Shown: positions 49,981 to 60,590 of the stretch, piece after piece
How the letters are laid out: each line of letters starts with the position of its first letter
Position numbering within the stretch: position 1 is the stretch's first letter
Assembly (NCBI GenBank): GCA_030150665.1
Contig: JASLFJ010000029.1
Span: 1-63,061 of the forward strand
Direction of reading: 5' to 3'
DNA: 63,061 bases
DNA from: Enterococcaceae bacterium
GTDB lineage: Bacteria; Bacillota; Bacilli; Lactobacillales; Catellicoccaceae
Program-made: the position numbers and the translations under genes
The notes under the pieces: generated by a model
Databases searched by the model: none
The model's input: the letters and a program-made list of their open reading frames with translations, nothing else
What the model was told of the DNA's origin: nothing

Positions 49981-50096
49981 ACTAATACTAGGCTAAATGT
50001 GTAGTGGATGCTTAAGTACAGCGTTTTATCAAACTCTAATGAACTAAGCTATCTTCATAGTTTCTACGGTTAAGCACAAGGCTTCCTTGCAAAGAT

Positions 50097-50136
50097 AAAA
50101 AACACACAACGAAGTTTTCGTTGTGTGTTTTTTTAT
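50097..50136. terminator. Bidirectional terminator (DUF421 gene and the 798-aa gene converge here)
   Basis: AACACACAACGA-loop-TCGTTGTGTGTT flanked by AAAAA and TTTTTTT. Confidence 0.88.
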
Positions 50137-50140
50137 TTTT

Positions 50141-52537
50141 TTAAATAAATAACTGCATTGAGGCTGTCTCACTTGCACCTAAAAACGTAGCAACCCCACC
50201 ATAATCTACAAAATCAAACAGTTCTTCTTCTGTAATTCCCATCACATCCATACTCATCGTACATGCAATAAATTTCACACCTAATTGATGTGCTTGCCAA
50301 ATCATCTCAGGAAGGGGGGTGACGTGTTTTTCTTTCATAATTTGATTCATCATACGTCTTCCCATCCCTCCCATATTCATTGAAGACAGTGGTAATTTAG
50401 AAGCATTTTTAGGTAAAAAGATATCAAACATTTTCGCGAACCCTTTCTTTTTTACGGGTTGTTTTTTTAATGCACTCAGTCCCCAAAATGTAAAAAATAA
50501 GGTAACAGGTTTACCCATAGCAGCTGCTCCAGAGGCAATAATCATCGATGCTAAAACTTTATCCATATCTCCACTAAAGACAACCATCGTCACTCCATCT
50601 TGAAGATGAGATACTTCTGTTTGCACAGAAGCTACTTTAAAACCCCCTTTTTGTAGCCGAATACGCATCAACCCATCTGCTTCTGTCATTTCATAAACAC
50701 TATTTCCTGTTTTTTCCGCCCAAGCACACACATCGTGATAAAACCCAGCATCAGAAGATAAAACACAAATAGTCTCTCCTTCTTGAATCTTTTGCATCGT
50801 TTCATTGACTTGAATAATCGGTCCTGGACACTGCATCACAGTAGCATCAATTGTATATCGATCTTCAGTAACGACTTGCTTTACTGTTTCTTTCACCTTT
50901 TCCACTCCTTGATCTATATTTTGATGTGGCGCTACAACGGGAACGGGCCATACTGTTTTTATGCCTTGTTGATAGGTTTTAAAGCCACCTTCTAAATTCT
51001 TAGCAGTCAAGCCATAAGCTTGTAGTAAACGTACTGCACGGTATCCTCTTAACCCAACTTGACAGAAAACATAGATGATCTGATCTTTAGGTAGCTCCTG
51101 AATACGTTCACTTAACTCAGATAAGGGAATATGATGACTTGTGTTTATCGTTCCTTGTTCCACTTCTACGGCTTCTCGTACATCTAATAAATACGCATCT
51201 TCTGCAACTAAATGATCAACTTCTTGCCAAGAAAAGACAGGAATTTGTCCTGTTAACACAAGGTCACATATAGCACCTAACTGTTGAAGTGGATCTACCC
51301 ACTTTGTTTTTTGTGGATGATAAGCAAAATCAATCCCTTTAATGCTTGGTAACGTCTTCTGATAAGTCCGCAACATATTTAAAAGGTTCACACGCTCCCA
51401 AACACCTGTTTTCCCAATCACCTGCGCACCGAAACACATCCCTTGTGGATCCATAATCACTTTTAGCGCGATCGGATCTAATGAGCCGATGCCAGGATCT
51501 TGAAGTGTAGGATACGTATGAATAGCTTGATAATGATCTTGATCATCCTGATCAGCTAGCTCTGACTCTGGTATCCCAAAACTCGCTATTTCCAGATCAA
51601 AACACTGAAAATAAACAGGAGCCTCTGTTCCCTGTTCTGTATCAAGCGCCTCATCTAAACTTGTATCTTTTTCTAACACTTTATTCGTTAATGCCCAAAT
51701 CTTATGCATTAATGCATGAGGATGTCCTACGCTTTCTATAGGATAAATATGTAACTGTTCCAGTACATCTTGATCTTCACTGAGTGCTTTAGAAATACCT
51801 TGTGGATACACAAGCACCGGTGTTTCTTGATGGAGCACAATAACGTGATCAGCTGTTACTACGTGTCCGTCACTTAATATAAGTTCATGATCATTGATGA
51901 TATCTTGAATATGTTGATTTAACGATAAAGCAATCCCTTGTTGACTACATACCTCTTGAACTAAAGCAGCCATCTCTTGATCTAAAAGATTAGGGAAAAG
52001 GTGCGTCTGATCGGTAATGATATGAACAAAAGCCCCTTGCTTTACTAAATATTCAGCAAGCTGAACACTGATCGGACCGCCTCCTAAAATCACAACATCT
52101 CCTGTTATTTTAGCTAATTGCGCTTTTGATAACAAGACCTCGCTATCTGCATCCACCCATGTATCTGGATAGGCCAAATCAGGAAATAAGGCTTGTTTTT
52201 GTTGCTGATACGTTGCAATAAAAAGCCCATCATAAAAGAACACTTGATCATCTGCTAAATATAACTTTTGTGCTTTTGGATCAACAGTCACTTGATCTGT
52301 ATTATAAACAGAAATGCCTAATGCTTTTAGCTGATCAGGCCAAGTGACTGGCTTTTCTTCCCACATCACTCTTAACTCATCAAACCAATATGCTATATCT
52401 GGGGCTAAAGACATTGGCGCATTCCCATCATAAATGACGATCACCTCATCTAAAGGAGATAAACGCTTTAATCGTTTAGCAAGACTCACCGCTGGCATAT
52501 CTGATCCTAAAATAATCCATAATTTTTGTTTTTGCAT
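50141..52537 (-). CDS. Four-module sulfur-trafficking protein: CoADR-like pyridine-nucleotide-disulfide-oxidoreductase fold (apparently degenerate), rhodanese, TusA/SirA-like and DsrE/DrsE_2-like modules
   Basis: The N-terminus LWIILGSDMPAVSLAKRL sits where GxGxxG is expected, and MSLAPDIAYW sits where the CoADR motif SFANC(G/A)LPY is expected. A second Rossmann motif VVILGGGPISVQLAEYL is retained. The rhodanese loop is VFCQVGLRGYRAV, the TusA motif is MQCPGPII, and the DsrE-like C-terminus reads VVFSGDMDKV...FIACTMSMDVMG. Confidence 0.8.
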   Translation of the reverse strand: MQKQKLWIILGSDMPAVSLAKRLKRLSPLDEVIVIYDGNAPMSLAPDIAYWFDELRVMWEEKPVTWPDQLKALGISVYNTDQVTVDPKAQKLYLADDQVFFYDGLFIATYQQQKQALFPDLAYPDTWVDADSEVLLSKAQLAKITGDVVILGGGPISVQLAEYLVKQGAFVHIITDQTHLFPNLLDQEMAALVQEVCSQQGIALSLNQHIQDIINDHELILSDGHVVTADHVIVLHQETPVLVYPQGISKALSEDQDVLEQLHIYPIESVGHPHALMHKIWALTNKVLEKDTSLDEALDTEQGTEAPVYFQCFDLEIASFGIPESELADQDDQDHYQAIHTYPTLQDPGIGSLDPIALKVIMDPQGMCFGAQVIGKTGVWERVNLLNMLRTYQKTLPSIKGIDFAYHPQKTKWVDPLQQLGAICDLVLTGQIPVFSWQEVDHLVAEDAYLLDVREAVEVEQGTINTSHHIPLSELSERIQELPKDQIIYVFCQVGLRGYRAVRLLQAYGLTAKNLEGGFKTYQQGIKTVWPVPVVAPHQNIDQGVEKVKETVKQVVTEDRYTIDATVMQCPGPIIQVNETMQKIQEGETICVLSSDAGFYHDVCAWAEKTGNSVYEMTEADGLMRIRLQKGGFKVASVQTEVSHLQDGVTMVVFSGDMDKVLASMIIASGAAAMGKPVTLFFTFWGLSALKKQPVKKKGFAKMFDIFLPKNASKLPLSSMNMGGMGRRMMNQIMKEKHVTPLPEMIWQAHQLGVKFIACTMSMDVMGITEEELFDFVDYGGVATFLGASETASMQLFI

Positions 52538-52559
52538 ACTTCATCCTCCTTATTTTCTA

Positions 52560-52596
52560 CATGTTTAAATATACCCCCTATAAGTATATTCGTCAA
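52560..52596 (-). promoter_or_regulatory. Promoter of the 798-aa gene overlapped by operator copy 1
   Basis: The minus strand reads TTGACG (52591-52596), a 17-nt spacer and TATATT (52568-52573). The spacer and -10 consist of the inverted repeat AATATAC-N9-GTATATT (52568-52590) with the core ATACCCCCTATAAGTAT. Confidence 0.6.
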
Positions 52597-52679
52597 CTCC
52601 TACTATATGGTCATAATTATGATCTTCATAAAATAGAAATCCTTTAATATTATGATATTAATTTATATATGTGCTTCGC

Positions 52680-52726
52680 TTGACTTTTAACTTATTTCAT
52701 GTTTATATATACCCATACAAGGTATT
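52680..52726 (+). promoter_or_regulatory. Promoter of the rhd-coaPR-rhd operon overlapped by operator copy 2
   Basis: TTGACT (52680-52685), a 17-nt spacer and TTATAT (52703-52708). CATGTTTATATATACCCATACAAGGTATT (52698-52726) repeats CATGTTTAAATATACCCCCTATAAGTATATT (52560-52590). The core is ATACC-N7-GGTAT. Confidence 0.6.
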
Positions 52727-52743
52727 AAAAGGAGGCGATAATC

Positions 52744-53064
52744 CTGGTTTTTGGATGGTTCAGTGTACCGACATGTACTACTGAGGACTTAAAAGCAGCA
52801 TTAAAGAAAGATCCAAAATGTGTCTTAATTGACGTAAGAACACCGAGTGAATTTCGTCAAGGTCATATCAGACAAGCAAAAAATGTCCCATTAAATACAC
52901 TAACAGATGATAATGTGCCACAACATCAACCTGTTTATGTCATTTGTCAATCCGGGATGCGCAGTAAAAAAGCCGTACGCCAACTGAAAAAACAAGGTAT
53001 TTCAGCGATTCATGTCAAAGGTGGCATGCATCAATGGAATGGACCGACTCAAGGAGGAAAATAA
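52744..53064 (+). CDS. Single-domain rhodanese (RhdA-like) with no canonical start codon
   Basis: My own translation is (L)VFGWFSVPTCTTEDLKAALKKDPKCVLIDVRTPSEFRQGHIRQAKNVPLNTL...VYVICQSGMRSKKAVRQLKKQGISAIHVKGGMHQWNG. A strong AGGAGG lies at 52730-52735. Between the upstream stop (52726-52728) and residue ~60 the only in-frame candidates are ATA 52738, ATC 52741 and CTG 52744. The gene is absent from the ORF track. Confidence 0.6.
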   Translation: MVFGWFSVPTCTTEDLKAALKKDPKCVLIDVRTPSEFRQGHIRQAKNVPLNTLTDDNVPQHQPVYVICQSGMRSKKAVRQLKKQGISAIHVKGGMHQWNGPTQGGK

Positions 53065-53067
53065 ACA

Positions 53068-54717
53068 ATGAAAATTATTATCGTAGGTGGTGTTGCAGGA
53101 GGTATGTCTGCTGCAACACGATTACGCCGCTTAAATGAAGATGCTGAAATTATTATTTTTGAAAAAGGGCCTTACGTATCCTTTGCCAACTGTGGTCTTC
53201 CTTATTTTGTCTCTGGAGAAATTGATGACCGTGAAAAACTACTGGTGCAAACTCCAGATTCTTTAAAAGCACGCTTTAACTTAGATGTTAAAACAAACCA
53301 TGAAGTACTAGATATTGATCCTGAACAAAAAACAGTGACGGTAACACATAACGGAAAAACATGGGAGGAATCTTATGATGCATTAATCTTATCTCCTGGT
53401 GCAAAACCGTTTGTCCCACCTATTCAAGGATTAGAAGAAGCAATAAATGTTCATACATTAAGAAACGTACCTGATCTTGACCGTATTATGCAGCAGTTAA
53501 CCCCTGCAACGAAAAAAGCAGTCGTGATTGGTGCAGGATTTATCGGTATTGAAATGGCAGAAAATCTAGCTCATCGCGGTTTATCAGTAACTATTGTAGA
53601 AAAAGCACCGCATGTGCTACCACCTTTAGATGAAGAAATGGCTGCATTTATTGAACAAGAACTCACACAACACGGAGTTTCTGTCATCTGTTCTCAATCC
53701 GCAGTAGCCTTTCATGATCAAGGATCAACAATTGAGTTAGAAGATGGGTCTCAATTAGAAGCCGATCTTATTATCTTATCGGTAGGTGTTACTCCAGAAA
53801 ATGAACTGGCATTAAAAGCAGGGCTAAAAACAGGGCTTCGCGGAGGTATTTGTGTTGATGAGCATTACCAAACAAGTCATAAAGATATTTATGCAGTAGG
53901 AGATGCGATTATTGTAAAACAACAAATTACAGGAGAAGATGCACTTATCGCACTTGCATCTCCAGCAAACCGTCAAGGTCGCCAAGTGGCTGACGTTATT
54001 TCTGGAATGGATCGTAAAAATAAAGGAAGTATCGGAACAGCTATAGTCCGTGCCTTTAACCTTACGGCAGCTTCTACAGGACTTAGTGAACGTGCAGCGC
54101 GTCTTTCTGGATTAACACCATCAGTTGTACATATTAGCGGTAAAGATCACGCTGGATATTATCCAGGAGCACAAGATTTACTATTAAAACTTATCTTTAA
54201 TAAAGAAACAGGAGCAATTTACGGCGCACAAGGAATCGGAGCTCAAGGAGTAGATAAACGTATCGATATTTTAGCTACAGCGATTAAAGCAGGACTTACT
54301 GTTCAAGATTTACCAGAGTTAGAATTCTCTTATGCACCACCCTTTGGTGCCGCAAAAGATCCTGTCAATATTTTAGGCTATGCAGCGCTGAACTTAATGG
54401 AAGGGATTAGCGAAAATATTCAGTGGTATGAACTCAATGATTATATAGCACAAGGACGTCACATTTTAGATGTTCGTGATGAACGAGAACTTATTGAAGG
54501 TCGCTTTAAAGATTCTATAAATATCCCATTAAATCAACTTAGAGATCGTCTTCATGAGCTTGATCCAAAACAACCCTATATCGTTAGCTGTCGTAGTGGA
54601 TTACGCAGTTACGTTGCAGAACGTATTTTAAAACAACACGGATTTGACGTGTTGAACTTAGATGGTGCCTTCCATCTTTATTCAACGGTTCGACCAGAGG
54701 AGTGTGTCTATGAATAA
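53068..54717 (+). CDS. CoA-disulfide reductase fused to a C-terminal rhodanese (CoA persulfide reductase / NADH-dependent persulfide reductase type)
   Basis: IIIVGGVAGGMSAATRL (FAD GxGxxG), SFANCGLPYF (redox Cys), VVIGAGFIGIEMAE (NAD(P)H), IYAVGDA, and the rhodanese loop VSCRSGLRSY. Confidence 0.88.
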   Translation: MKIIIVGGVAGGMSAATRLRRLNEDAEIIIFEKGPYVSFANCGLPYFVSGEIDDREKLLVQTPDSLKARFNLDVKTNHEVLDIDPEQKTVTVTHNGKTWEESYDALILSPGAKPFVPPIQGLEEAINVHTLRNVPDLDRIMQQLTPATKKAVVIGAGFIGIEMAENLAHRGLSVTIVEKAPHVLPPLDEEMAAFIEQELTQHGVSVICSQSAVAFHDQGSTIELEDGSQLEADLIILSVGVTPENELALKAGLKTGLRGGICVDEHYQTSHKDIYAVGDAIIVKQQITGEDALIALASPANRQGRQVADVISGMDRKNKGSIGTAIVRAFNLTAASTGLSERAARLSGLTPSVVHISGKDHAGYYPGAQDLLLKLIFNKETGAIYGAQGIGAQGVDKRIDILATAIKAGLTVQDLPELEFSYAPPFGAAKDPVNILGYAALNLMEGISENIQWYELNDYIAQGRHILDVRDERELIEGRFKDSINIPLNQLRDRLHELDPKQPYIVSCRSGLRSYVAERILKQHGFDVLNLDGAFHLYSTVRPEECVYE

Positions 54718-55009
54718 TATTTCCAATGAAACTTTATATCAAAAATTACCTTTACCTGATACTGCTGTCTTGCTTGATGTTCGTGAAATAGATGAATACC
54801 AAGAAGGCCATATTCCAGAAGCCATCAATATACCCTTAAGTACATTGACAGAAACATATCAACAGCTAGATCCAAAAAAGACTTATTATATCATCTGTCT
54901 TTCAGGCATGCGCTCATTAAATGCCAGTCAATGGCTTGTAGAACATGGATTTCAAGATGTCTATAATGTCACAGGAGGCATGAGTCAGTGGAAGGGTCCT
55001 ATCGAATAA
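54710..55009 (+). CDS. Single-domain rhodanese (RhdB-like)
   Basis: LLDVREIDEYQEGHIPEAINIPL...YIICLSGMRSLNASQWL. ATG 54710 overlaps the upstream stop by 8 nt, and the longer ORF in the track is an out-of-gene extension. Confidence 0.85.
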   Translation: MNNISNETLYQKLPLPDTAVLLDVREIDEYQEGHIPEAINIPLSTLTETYQQLDPKKTYYIICLSGMRSLNASQWLVEHGFQDVYNVTGGMSQWKGPIE

Positions 55010-55012
55010 AAA

Positions 55013-55047
55013 AATACGCTTTGACGTTTGTCAAGGCGTATTTTTTT
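55013..55047 (+). terminator. Terminator of the rhd-coaPR-rhd operon
   Basis: ATACGCTTTGAC-GTTT-GTCAAGGCGTAT (one G-U pair) followed by TTTTTTT. Confidence 0.85.
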
Positions 55048-55265
55048 GAGATAAACTATTTTAACACAAAAAAATCATCAATATATTAAACTCAATATTT
55101 CAATGATGATCACAAACAACTTGCCTCACCATAAAAAGAGCTCATCTAAAACCTTTATCTTGTTCATTTCGATGGTATTTTAAACGGTAAAAAGAGGCAA
55201 ACCATGGTTTTAAATGATGAATCATTCCAGGGTACTTATCATGTTGAAGCACTAACATATAGTTG

Positions 55266-55299
55266 ATAAAAAATCTATAGGCTGAGCCTATAGATTTTT
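55266..55299 (-). terminator. Terminator of the P-type ATPase gene
   Basis: ATCTATAGGC-TCA-GCCTATAGAT followed by TTTTTT on the minus strand, directly after the stop codon. Confidence 0.88.
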
Positions 55300-58145: not shown

Positions 58146-60572
58146 TTACGCAGGTTTTACAACAATATTCACTAATTTTTTAGGAACAACAATCACTTTC
58201 ACAATCTCAACATCAGTGAGTTGTTCTTTAATTTTTTCATCTTCTAAAGCTTGTGTTTCTAAATATGCTTGATCTGCAGTTACAGGAACTGTTAATTTAC
58301 TGCGTACTTTTCCGTTAATCTGTACAACAATTTCTACTTGATCTTCTTCTAAAGCTGCTGGATCAAAACTTGGCCAAGGAGCATGTGTAATACTTTCTTG
58401 ATGTCCTAATTTTTCCCATAATTCTTCGGCAATATGAGGTGCAACTGGAGCAAGTAGCTGTAAGAATCCTTCTAAATAACCTATATATAACGCATCTGCT
58501 TTATACGCTTCATTGATAAAAATCATCAACTGGGAAATGCCTGTATTAAAACGTAGTGCTTCATAATCTTCGGTAACTTTCTTTACAGTTTGATGATAAA
58601 CTTTTGTCAGTGAATCATCATTAATCGTTGTAATACGATCTCTTAATGCTCCTTTATCATCAACCATCAAGCGCCAAATACGATCTAAAAACTTACGACT
58701 GCCTTCAAGCCCTTGTTCACTCCAAGCAATGGAAGCATCAAGAGGTCCCATAAACATTTCATAAAGACGTAACGTATCTGCTCCGTATTGGTCGACTACA
58801 TCATCAGGATTTACGACATTACCACGAGATTTAGACATTTTCTCATTGTTTTCTCCTAAAATCATTCCCTGATTAAAGAGCTTTTGAAACGGTTCAGGGG
58901 TAGGTACCACTCCGATATCATATAAAAACTTATGCCAAAAACGAGCATATAATAAATGCAGTACCGCATGTTCTGCACCGCCAATATAAATATCTACAGG
59001 CAACCATTCCTCTAATTTTTGATAATCAGCCAGTGCTTTTTGATTATGCGGATCAATAAATCTTAAGAAATACCATGAACTTCCTGCCCACTGTGGCATT
59101 GTATTTGTTTCACGTTTTCCTTTTTTACCAGTTTTTGGATCCACAACATGAACCCACTCTGTTATATTTGCTAAAGGTGACTCACCGGTCCCACTAGGTT
59201 GAATCTCATCAGTTTTTGGTAACACAACAGGAAGCTCTTCTTCAGAAACCGCTGTTGTTGTCCCATCTTCCCAGTGAATCACAGGAATCGGCTCTCCCCA
59301 GTAGCGCTGACGAGAAAATAACCAGTCCCGTAAGCGGTACGTCACTTCAGCATATCCTGCATCATGAGCTTCTAACCACTCAATCATTTTTTGACTAGCT
59401 TCTTCTTGATATAAGCCATCTAAAAAGTCAGAAGCCATATGAGGTCCGTCTTCAGTATAAGCACGTAGTTCAATATCACTACCTTCAATAACTGGTCTGA
59501 TCAATAGATGATGTTTTTTCGCAAACTCATAGTCTCGCTCATCATGTGCAGGAACTGCCATCACTGCCCCTGTTCCGTAGCTGCCTAACACATAATCAGC
59601 CACCCAAATCGGAACTTCAGCACCTGTTACAGGATGAACTGCATAGGCTCCTGTAAAGATACCTGTTTTTTCTTTAGCAAGTTCTGTACGGTCAAAATCA
59701 GACTTCTTAGCAGCGGCTTCTTGATAAGCTTCAACAGCTTCTTTTTGTTCTGGAGTCACAATATCTTGAACTAACGAAAGCTCAGGTGCACAAACAACAT
59801 AAGTAACACCAAATAATGTATCTGGACGTGTTGTAAATACTTCAATGACTTGATCTTCATGACCGGCTACTTTAAATTGAACGCGCGCTCCTTCAGAGCG
59901 TCCAATCCAATTACGCTGCATTTCTTTAATATTTTCTGGCCAATCAACAAGATCTAAATCTTCTAATAATCGATCAGCATAATCTGTAATTTTTAACATC
60001 CACTGTTTCATCGGCACGCGATATACAGGATGATCTCCTCGCTCTGATTTACCATCAATCACTTCTTCATTAGCTAATACGGTTCCTAATGCTGGACACC
60101 AGTTTACAGGGACTTCCGCTTCATAGGCAAGCCCTCGTTTAAAGAGCTGAACAAAAATCCACTGTGTCCAATGATAATACTCTGGATCTGTTGTGTTAAT
60201 CTCACGGTCCCAATCATAACTAAATCCAAGCGCATTTAATTGCTTACGAAATACTTCGATATTTTGTTCTGTAAAAATAGCAGGATCATTACCTGTATCC
60301 AGTGCATATTGTTCTGCAGGAAGACCAAACGCATCCCATCCCATCGGATGTAATACGTTATATCCTTGCGCCCGCTTCATACGTGCTAAAATATCTGTTG
60401 CTGTATAGCCTTCAGGATGCCCTACATGAAGCCCTTGTCCAGAGGGATAAGGAAACATATCAAGCGCATAAAAATAAGGCTTATCGGGATCTTCTGTTGT
60501 TTTAAATGTATGATGATTTTTCCAATAATCTTGCCATTTTTTTTCAATAGATTGATGATCATAATGCATCAT
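58146..60572 (-). CDS. leuS: Leucine--tRNA ligase
   Basis: [16 protein letters not shown] (HIGH region) and [11 protein letters not shown] 60572 lies 7 nt after AAAGGAG, whereas the track starts two codons earlier at GTG. Confidence 0.97.
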
Positions 60573-60590
60573 AAACACACTCCTTTAAAT

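Follow-up and report, generated by a model that had tools for sequence, protein, structure and literature searches.

A degenerate CoA-disulfide reductase-like domain as the putative scaffold of a CstA-like persulfide relay in a divergent reactive-sulfur locus

Why would a bacterium that encodes an intact coenzyme A (CoA) persulfide reductase keep, across a 206-bp intergenic region, a second and larger protein with the same reductase-rhodanese backbone whose reductase half has lost its catalytic motifs? The question is raised by positions 50141-55009 of contig JASLFJ010000029.1 (assembly GCA_030150665.1) from an Enterococcaceae bacterium, the whole 63,061-nt stretch of which was analyzed and is called the window below. 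Two divergent transcription units occupy these positions, a minus-strand gene for a 798-aa protein of four modules and rhdA-coaP-rhdB on the plus strand:

50141..52537, minus strand: 798-aa four-module gene (putative pseudo-CoA-disulfide reductase [pseudo-CoADR], rhodanese [Rhd], TusA, DsrE/DrsE_2), with the ribosome-binding site AAGGAGG 7 nt 5' of its ATG
52744..53064, plus strand: rhdA, single-domain rhodanese (CQSGMRS) of about 106 aa, apparent start CTG (or ATC at 52741)
53068..54717, plus strand: coaP, 549 aa, intact CoA-persulfide reductase (CoAPR) made of a CDR domain and a rhodanese
54710..55009, plus strand: rhdB, single-domain rhodanese (CLSGMRS) of 99 aa, whose ATG overlaps the coaP stop by 8 nt

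The answer that we favor, and consider somewhat better than an even bet, is that the 798-aa protein is a CstA-like persulfide relay mounted on a pseudo-reductase scaffold, in a CstR-type locus for the detoxification of reactive sulfur species. A hidden Markov model (HMM) domain scan returned for it the CoADR-Rhd-TusA-DsrE set that an initial annotation, made from the letters of the sequence, had assigned: Pyr_redox_2 (residues 8-234, 67 bits against a cut-off of 26.1), Pyr_redox (residues 148-216), Rhodanese (PF00581, residues 438-523), TusA (PF01206, residues 561-630) and DrsE_2 (PF13686, residues 649-797, 1e-49), with Pyr_redox_dim below threshold (18 bits, cut-off 25.3). The protein is divided as follows:

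51248..52537, minus strand: degenerate CoADR-like N-domain, residues 1-430
50948..51247, minus strand: rhodanese domain, residues 431-530, active-site Cys492 (CQVGLRG)
50642..50872, minus strand: TusA domain, residues 556-632, Cys570 (QCPGP)
50144..50593, minus strand: DsrE/DrsE_2 domain, residues 649-798, Cys759 (ACTMSMD)

That the reductase half is dead had also been proposed at the outset, and alignment with intact homologues confirmed the loss of the motif for flavin adenine dinucleotide (FAD), of the redox cysteine and of the GD motif. GGVAGG has become GSDMPA in all six alleles compared (the window and Logan contigs L001-L005, independently assembled from different SRA runs); SFANCGLPY has become MSLAPDIAY, with Pro46 in the position equivalent to Cys42, and residues 1-196 hold no cysteine at all. 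The YA(I/V)GD motif is replaced or deleted, 10 residues are deleted in the GAKP region at the crossover between the FAD and nicotinamide adenine dinucleotide (NAD) parts, and the active-site segments HxxxYYPG and AYAPPY are replaced, the active-site Tyr and His being gone. The survival of the NAD motif GGGPIS, which the initial annotation had asserted, did not withstand inspection: Ser already replaces the third Gly of GxGxxG, and the reading is GGSPIS or GSSPIS in four of the six alleles. NAD(P)H binding has very probably been lost as well. What the N-domain keeps includes G11, G152, E162 and D186, together with A20, R22, R25 and L26 (AxRLxRL) of the alpha-1 helix that adjoins the destroyed FAD motif. 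The three carrier cysteines, Cys492, Cys570 and Cys759, are invariant.

The same division was seen when 43 intact four-module homologues were used to define columns of at least 90% conservation. Rhd, TusA and DsrE jointly keep 91 of 98 such columns (27/29, 12/15 and 52/54), and the whole N-domain keeps 37 of 115, distributed as 10/40 in the FAD-N sub-domain, 11/22 in the NAD sub-domain, 1/14 in the FAD-C sub-domain and 15/39 in the dimerization sub-domain. The TIGR03385 cut-off is 578.8 bits and the 798-aa protein reaches 85.6; by that measure it is a homologue, not an equivalog, of the CoA-disulfide reductases. The catalytic features that define CoADR/CoAPR are missing from it, and to judge from its sequence the name CoA-disulfide reductase is inappropriate for it. 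Annotators should be warned that homology would name it either 'CoA-disulfide reductase' or 'FAD-dependent oxidoreductase', and that it is almost certainly neither.

Could the protein nevertheless be an active flavoprotein or reductase that binds its cofactor in a non-canonical way? The persistence of Pyr_redox_2 homology and of a predicted CoADR-like fold, and the four retained residues G11, G152, E162 and D186, would fit, but we hold it to be very improbable. Asp and Pro now lie inside the pyrophosphate-binding turn (GSDMPA), and the absence of Cys from residues 1-196, the loss of the GD motif and HxxxYYPG, the crossover deletion and the low TIGR03385 score all argue against it. So does the rest of the family: the FAD motif (GGVAGG or a close variant) and the redox Cys are kept in all 116 other full-length homologues examined, indicating that activity strictly requires both, and among the full-length matches listed the sole exception is a close relative of the 798-aa protein itself (P0001, 96% identity).

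A single unusual protein might of course be a construct of the assembler. The 90%-identity cluster of the 798-aa protein comprises seven distinct alleles; both the window and L001-L005 have an unbroken open reading frame (ORF) (the copy in L006 is cut by the contig end), and these six alleles show no stop codon and no frameshift and share the dead motifs. The ORF is thus no assembly fusion, a finding that by its own terms would have refuted the initial annotation. For an assembly chimera or a whole-gene pseudogene nothing speaks beyond the unusual N-terminus; against either stand the recovery of the same ORF from the NCBI contig and from six or more independent SRA assemblies, a ratio of nonsynonymous to synonymous polymorphism (pN/pS) of 0.02-0.07 in the carrier domains, a good ribosome-binding site and promoter, and the same domain order in more than 100 homologues. 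Both were ruled out on the strength of the intact ORF in independent assemblies and the strongly purified C-terminal half, and of all the explanations considered here this one receives the least weight from us, next to none.

Selection has acted unevenly along the protein. In the N-domain pN/pS was 0.24 (44 nonsynonymous and 50 synonymous substitutions) and in Rhd, TusA and DsrE pooled it was 0.05 (7 and 39), the separate values being 0.07, 0.06 and, for DsrE, the most constrained part of the protein, 0.02; the substitution counts of N-domain and carrier domains differ (Fisher p = 3e-4). The N-domain value is also well below neutrality (binomial p = 9e-12), and its dimerization sub-domain, at 0.22, is like the remainder. 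The two linkers (residues 531-555 and 633-648; positions 50873-50947 and 50594-50641) carry nine nonsynonymous substitutions and one synonymous, pN/pS > 1, as well as a 2-aa Pro-Val indel that separates 798-aa from 796-aa alleles. Selection on the N-domain is, then, relaxed but not free, and its 1290-nt frame, still open although identity has fallen to about 24%, can only have been under translation and selection all along.

An AlphaFold2 (AF2) model of the 798-aa protein had a mean per-residue confidence (pLDDT) of 72, with the Rhd, TusA and DsrE modules confident (about 87 for the rhodanese) and values below 50 at residues 39-64, the former redox-Cys helix, and at residues 291-304, 345-353 and 405-413. 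By Foldseek it matched the Bacillus anthracis CoADR-RHD (3ICR/3ICT) and the Enterococcus faecalis CoAPR (EfCoAPR, 8A56) with target-normalized TM-scores of 0.73-0.75. In EfCoAPR the CDR domains build a dimer interface of 3600 A2 into which the rhodanese domains are wedged (PMC9405070), and we propose a like scaffold role for the N-domain here; a scaffold that feeds a relay had been suggested in the initial annotation. Such a role would most plausibly account for a domain that is still constrained (pN/pS 0.24) and is predicted to adopt the CoADR fold.

The same measurements can be turned toward a second explanation, in which the N-terminal 430 residues are a functionless relic in decay, held in frame for the sake of the downstream Rhd-TusA-DsrE and constrained only so far as misfolding and aggregation must be avoided. 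The five-fold higher pN/pS of the N-domain relative to the carrier domains, the variation of the NAD motif among strains (GGGPIS, GGSPIS, GSSPIS), the retention of only 32% of conserved N-domain columns, the several segments with pLDDT below 50 and the neutral or faster evolution of the linkers (pN/pS > 1) all agree with decay. However, a pN/pS of 0.24 is far below 1, the 1290-nt frame has remained open in a genome of about 35-38% G+C despite the extent of its divergence, no strain has a deletion or an internal restart, and the dimerization sub-domain is as constrained as the remaining N-domain. Moreover, a standalone Rhd-TusA-DsrE protein exists in CstA, so the deletion of a useless domain would have been viable. 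We therefore judge the relic explanation unlikely, though it is the strongest competitor of the scaffold.

A third explanation starts from the residues that the N-domain has kept. A20, R22, R25 and L26 are among the few N-terminal columns retained, and the rhodanese keeps 27 of its 29 conserved columns; N-domain and rhodanese might together still form a pocket for the 3'-phospho-ADP part of CoA, in which case the sulfur of CoA persulfide (CoASSH) would be drained into TusA and DsrE and not reduced to H2S. On the other hand the pantetheine channel leads to the place of the former Cys/FAD site, Tyr and His of the active site are gone, and the conserved helix could equally be structural. Such neofunctionalization as a ligand-binding domain we regard as a doubtful proposition, a little behind the relic. 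The corollary is just as doubtful: the dead domain would be a repurposed module for CoA binding and dimerization, the protein would be a CoA-persulfide-specific sulfurtransferase, and the destruction of CoASSH would have been turned into salvage of its sulfur. Were this specificity real, the locus would record a natural transition from enzyme to pseudoenzyme in bacterial reactive-sulfur metabolism and would define what the four-module family does with its carrier domains.

The preferred reading, a relay on a scaffold, gains its sense from the plus arm. The initial annotation had described this arm as a rhodanese, an intact CoADR-Rhd fusion and a second rhodanese, matching the cst-like RhdA-CoAPR-RhdB arrangement, and ORFs, Pfam matches and CoAPR identity bear that description out. 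The CoAPR is 72-75% identical to its homologues in Enterococcus italicus, E. aquimarinus and Enterococcus sp. LJL98, scores 497 bits on TIGR03385 and has all its motifs intact (GGVAGG, Cys42, GAGFIG, YAVGD, Cys508); its Cys42 and Cys508 correspond to the residues that are catalytically required in E. faecalis CoAPR (PMC9405070). The plus arm is in effect an ordinary Enterococcus-type cst-like operon without an adjacent cstR.

Where does the dead version come from? A protein search with the 798-aa sequence gave 472 relatives. Among the 120 listed, 117 have all four modules at full length (about 810-835 aa); their sources include Streptococcus, Vagococcus, Trichococcus, Clostridium and Fusobacterium, and their annotation is 'CoA-disulfide reductase' or 'FAD-dependent oxidoreductase'. 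All the best full-length matches among those listed have four modules, the best homologues being 37-42% identical overall. The architecture, for which the initial annotation knew of no characterized example, is therefore that of a widespread family, one member of which, Bacteroides fragilis BF638R_0572, has been studied genetically: it has the same four modules, is regulated by BmoR and affects sensitivity to diamide (PMC6158253). It is the dead-reductase version that appears unusual, as a lineage-specific derivative. An HMMER search with the N-domain over 1.84 billion representatives found one close cluster, the next match being at E = 2e-19 and 27% identity, and beyond that cluster this search revealed no wider clade of dead-N-domain proteins. 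Two unrelated proteins among its matches show partial degeneration. P0223 (826 aa, four-module) keeps the FAD motif, has lost the redox Cys and reads GS for GD; P0227 (559 aa, CoADR-Rhd) has lost the redox Cys. By these independent cases, reductase function has been lost more than once in the family. Five Fusobacterium proteins were also flagged as lacking GD by a motif regular expression, probably because the expression missed it.

Synteny and identity place the window gene within this family. Enterococcus sp. LJL98 (L007) shares the divergent arrangement: rhdA-coaP-rhdB-trx lies on one side and, on the other, an intact 819-aa gene of four modules with cstR (86 aa) behind it. In E. italicus cstR is divergent from rhdA-coaP-rhdB-trx and there is no four-module gene, and in S. 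dysgalactiae, S. henryi and V. intermedius an intact four-module gene stands alone. Between LJL98 and S. dysgalactiae identity is 75% in the N-domain, 67% in Rhd, 62% in TusA and 77% in DsrE; between the window and LJL98 the corresponding values are 23.5%, 48%, 34% and 75%. The window N-domain is 20-26% identical to its intact homologues, which are 50-76% identical among themselves, and the window DsrE is 75% identical to the LJL98 and Streptococcus homologues alike. By its best matches and synteny the 798-aa protein is a member by descent of the CoADR-Rhd-TusA-DsrE family, and its gene is the positional counterpart of the LJL98 819-aa gene, not a paralogue spun off the neighboring CoAPR. Of the 'paralogous pseudo-reductase' first proposed, the pseudo-reductase accordingly stands, by its motif losses, and the paralogy does not. 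In its core, a cst-like arm diverging from a four-module protein with a dead reductase half, the initial annotation is supported by domain scan, alignment, structure prediction, synteny and selection. The simplest history begins with an ancestor that had a four-module protein as well as a separate CoAPR; the redundant reductase then decayed, and cstR and trx also disappeared from the locus in this lineage.

Control of the two arms was sought in the intergenic region, both of whose operator-like sites are listed here with the promoter and terminators:

52569..52587: operator-like site 1 (CstR-type), ATATACCCCCTATAAGTAT, in the spacer and -10 of the promoter predicted for the 798-aa gene
52707..52725: operator-like site 2 (CstR-type), ATATACCCATACAAGGTAT, just 5' of the rhdA ribosome-binding site and overlapping a possible -10 of a TTGACT (52680) promoter
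52568..52596, minus strand: predicted sigma-70 promoter of the 798-aa gene, TTGACG-17 nt-TATATT, which is no more than the best consensus match on that strand
50097..50133, bidirectional: intrinsic terminator 3' of the 798-aa gene, 17-bp stem, with no cstR beyond it
55010..55047, plus strand: likely intrinsic terminator 3' of rhdB, AAAAATACGCTTTGACGTTTGTCAAGGCGTATTTTTTT, read from the sequence and not listed by the terminator scan

Both sites resemble the Streptococcus mitis cst operator ATATACCCTTATGGGGTATAT, which has been shown experimentally to be bound (PMC8643695). Nowhere else in the window is the pattern ATATACCC-N4-8-RGTAT present, and shuffled sequences do not contain it at all. A relaxed motif, ATACCC-N4-8-RGTAT, has two copies in the intergenic region of LJL98 and two in that of E. 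italicus, and it also stands directly 5' of three intact four-module genes, from V. intermedius, S. dysgalactiae and S. henryi; 80 control loci contained it only once. The operators of these three genes (L010 7946-7984, L091 4952-4967 and L092 4953-4968, respectively) are palindromic and lie 17-55 nt 5' of the start (about 35 nt in the streptococci). Because a CstR-type operator stands 5' of the intact genes checked, the four-module family is probably CstR-regulated, and this distribution suggests that the whole family belongs to CstR regulons; we found no paper that states CstR regulation for it. In the window the operators are retained though the repressor gene is not nearby, and we consider it likely that both arms answer to a CstR encoded outside it.

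The proposed mechanism can be set out in a few steps. The plus arm would supply two rhodaneses and a competent NAD(P)H/FAD CoA-persulfide reductase, and the reduction of CoASSH would be left to this neighboring CoAPR. Because a separate CoAPR is encoded next door, the N-terminal reductase half of the 798-aa protein would be redundant, and would so have lost FAD binding, the redox Cys and very probably NAD(P)H binding. Sulfane sulfur would be taken up on Cys492 of the rhodanese and passed to Cys570 of TusA and on to Cys759 of DsrE, or to an external acceptor or partner. The former reductase domain would be kept as a folded, non-catalytic scaffold that dimerizes and positions the rhodanese domain, and both arms would be repressed by CstR from outside the window and induced by persulfides. 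The direction of the relay, the loss of flavin, the scaffold role and the control of this locus by CstR are what we infer. Observed were the domain content, the motif losses, the synteny with an intact orthologue, the constraint on each domain and the operator-like sites, and also that the cysteines of Rhd, TusA and DsrE are the sole reactive residues to stay conserved in the 798-aa protein.

Several observations weigh against this mechanism. Nonsynonymous change in the N-domain runs at about five times the rate of the carrier domains, and the NAD motif varies among alleles; the domain could be heading for deletion, not serving as a scaffold. The carrier domains are themselves not all unchanged: TusA is accelerated (34-39% identity against 54-64% among closer intact relatives), as is Rhd (40-54% against about 57-67%), and the partners of the relay may have changed. 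Loss of FAD is read from the motifs, and the alignment that steered the AF2 prediction consisted of intact homologues. Searches of the 63-kb window by tblastn with CstR from Staphylococcus aureus, LJL98 and E. italicus and with Bacillus subtilis CsoR found no cstR, and the invariance of the two operator-like sites in six contigs is weak evidence for their function, since about 2.4 substitutions were expected where none was seen. Finally, we found no paper on the biochemistry of a four-module fusion, the genetic study in B. fragilis being the one report.

How far do known systems support a relay of this kind? The closest are the members of the four-module family, with the same domain order and length class (about 800-835 aa): LJL98 (819 aa), S. 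dysgalactiae, S. suis and S. henryi (820-823 aa), V. intermedius (831 aa), Fusobacterium (809 aa) and BF638R_0572. The members examined keep GGVAGG, SFANCG and GGGxxG, whereas the 798-aa protein is without FAD motif, redox Cys and GD; and in LJL98 the gene is followed by cstR, which is not adjacent here. For residues 1-530 the best structural and sequence matches are B. anthracis CoADR-RHD (3ICR/3ICS) and Shewanella Npsr (3NTA), both FAD- and Cys-dependent enzymes, in contrast to the 798-aa protein, which is without their catalytic apparatus and has TusA and DsrE appended.

For the carrier half the model is S. aureus CstA, to which the initial annotation had likened it by domain set. CstA has these three modules too, likewise ordered and with one cysteine apiece, and it belongs to a CstR-type regulon, as by its operator-like sites the 798-aa gene probably does. 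The chemistry to be expected of both would be transfer of persulfide or thiosulfate sulfur between cysteines; according to Higgins et al. (2015, Biochemistry 54:2385), as cited in PMC5480029, CstA is the multidomain sulfurtransferase encoded in the cst operon and is able to remove persulfide from SufS. CstA differs in having no reductase-derived N-domain and in adjoining cstB and sqr, neither of which is in the window locus, and the three-module unit of the window descends from a four-module ancestor and not from CstA. The plus arm, for its part, has the gene order of the cst-like operon cstR-rhdA-coaP-rhdB of E. faecalis and S. mitis (PMC9405070, PMC8643695), an order shared by LJL98 and E. 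italicus. Compared with that operon the window has no adjacent cstR, no downstream thioredoxin gene and a non-canonical rhdA start, and it has in addition the divergent four-module gene.

The locus amounts to a natural dissection of the four-module family. With a separate CoAPR alongside, the reductase half appears dispensable for catalysis, and DsrE has stayed nearly unchanged, Rhd and TusA less so; this suggests that what is not redundant in the family is the work of the carrier half. The locus would also provide a clean and datable example of how redundancy forms a pseudoenzyme. Four-module proteins are widespread in streptococci, enterococci, clostridia, fusobacteria and Bacteroides, and they are probably under CstR.

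The starts of the two small rhodanese genes required separate attention. The rhdA frame has no ATG, GTG or TTG start; it opens at CTG 52744, 3' of AGGAGG at 52730-52735 and 8 nt 3' of GGAGG, where relatives carry ATG. Residues 1-104 of LJL98 RhdA match 52747-53061 at 50% identity (tblastn), the six contigs do not differ around the start, and gene callers give just a 49-aa piece from GTG 52915; initiation is likely to be non-canonical, at CTG or ATC. For rhdB the 115-aa reading from ATG 54662 is the longest possible and would overlap coaP by 56 nt, and ATG 54710 is probably the true start, being used by relatives and by most gene calls, with the same 8-nt overlap in LJL98.

Beyond the two arms the gaps at 49981-50140 and 55010-55299 hold only terminators, where LJL98 has cstR and trx, and neither a thioredoxin gene nor a remnant of one was found in the window 3' of rhdB. 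Elsewhere in the window the leucyl-tRNA synthetase (LeuRS, 58146-60578, minus strand) is at most 75% identical to its genome matches, which come from Enterococcus, Carnobacterium, Vagococcus, Granulicatella and Bacillaceae, and a scan of genome contigs gave no relative of the 798-aa protein among GTDB species representatives. Taken together, these two results indicate a Lactobacillales-like lineage for which the GTDB species-representative collection contains no close sequenced genome. The locus of this same lineage nonetheless recurs in at least six SRA runs.

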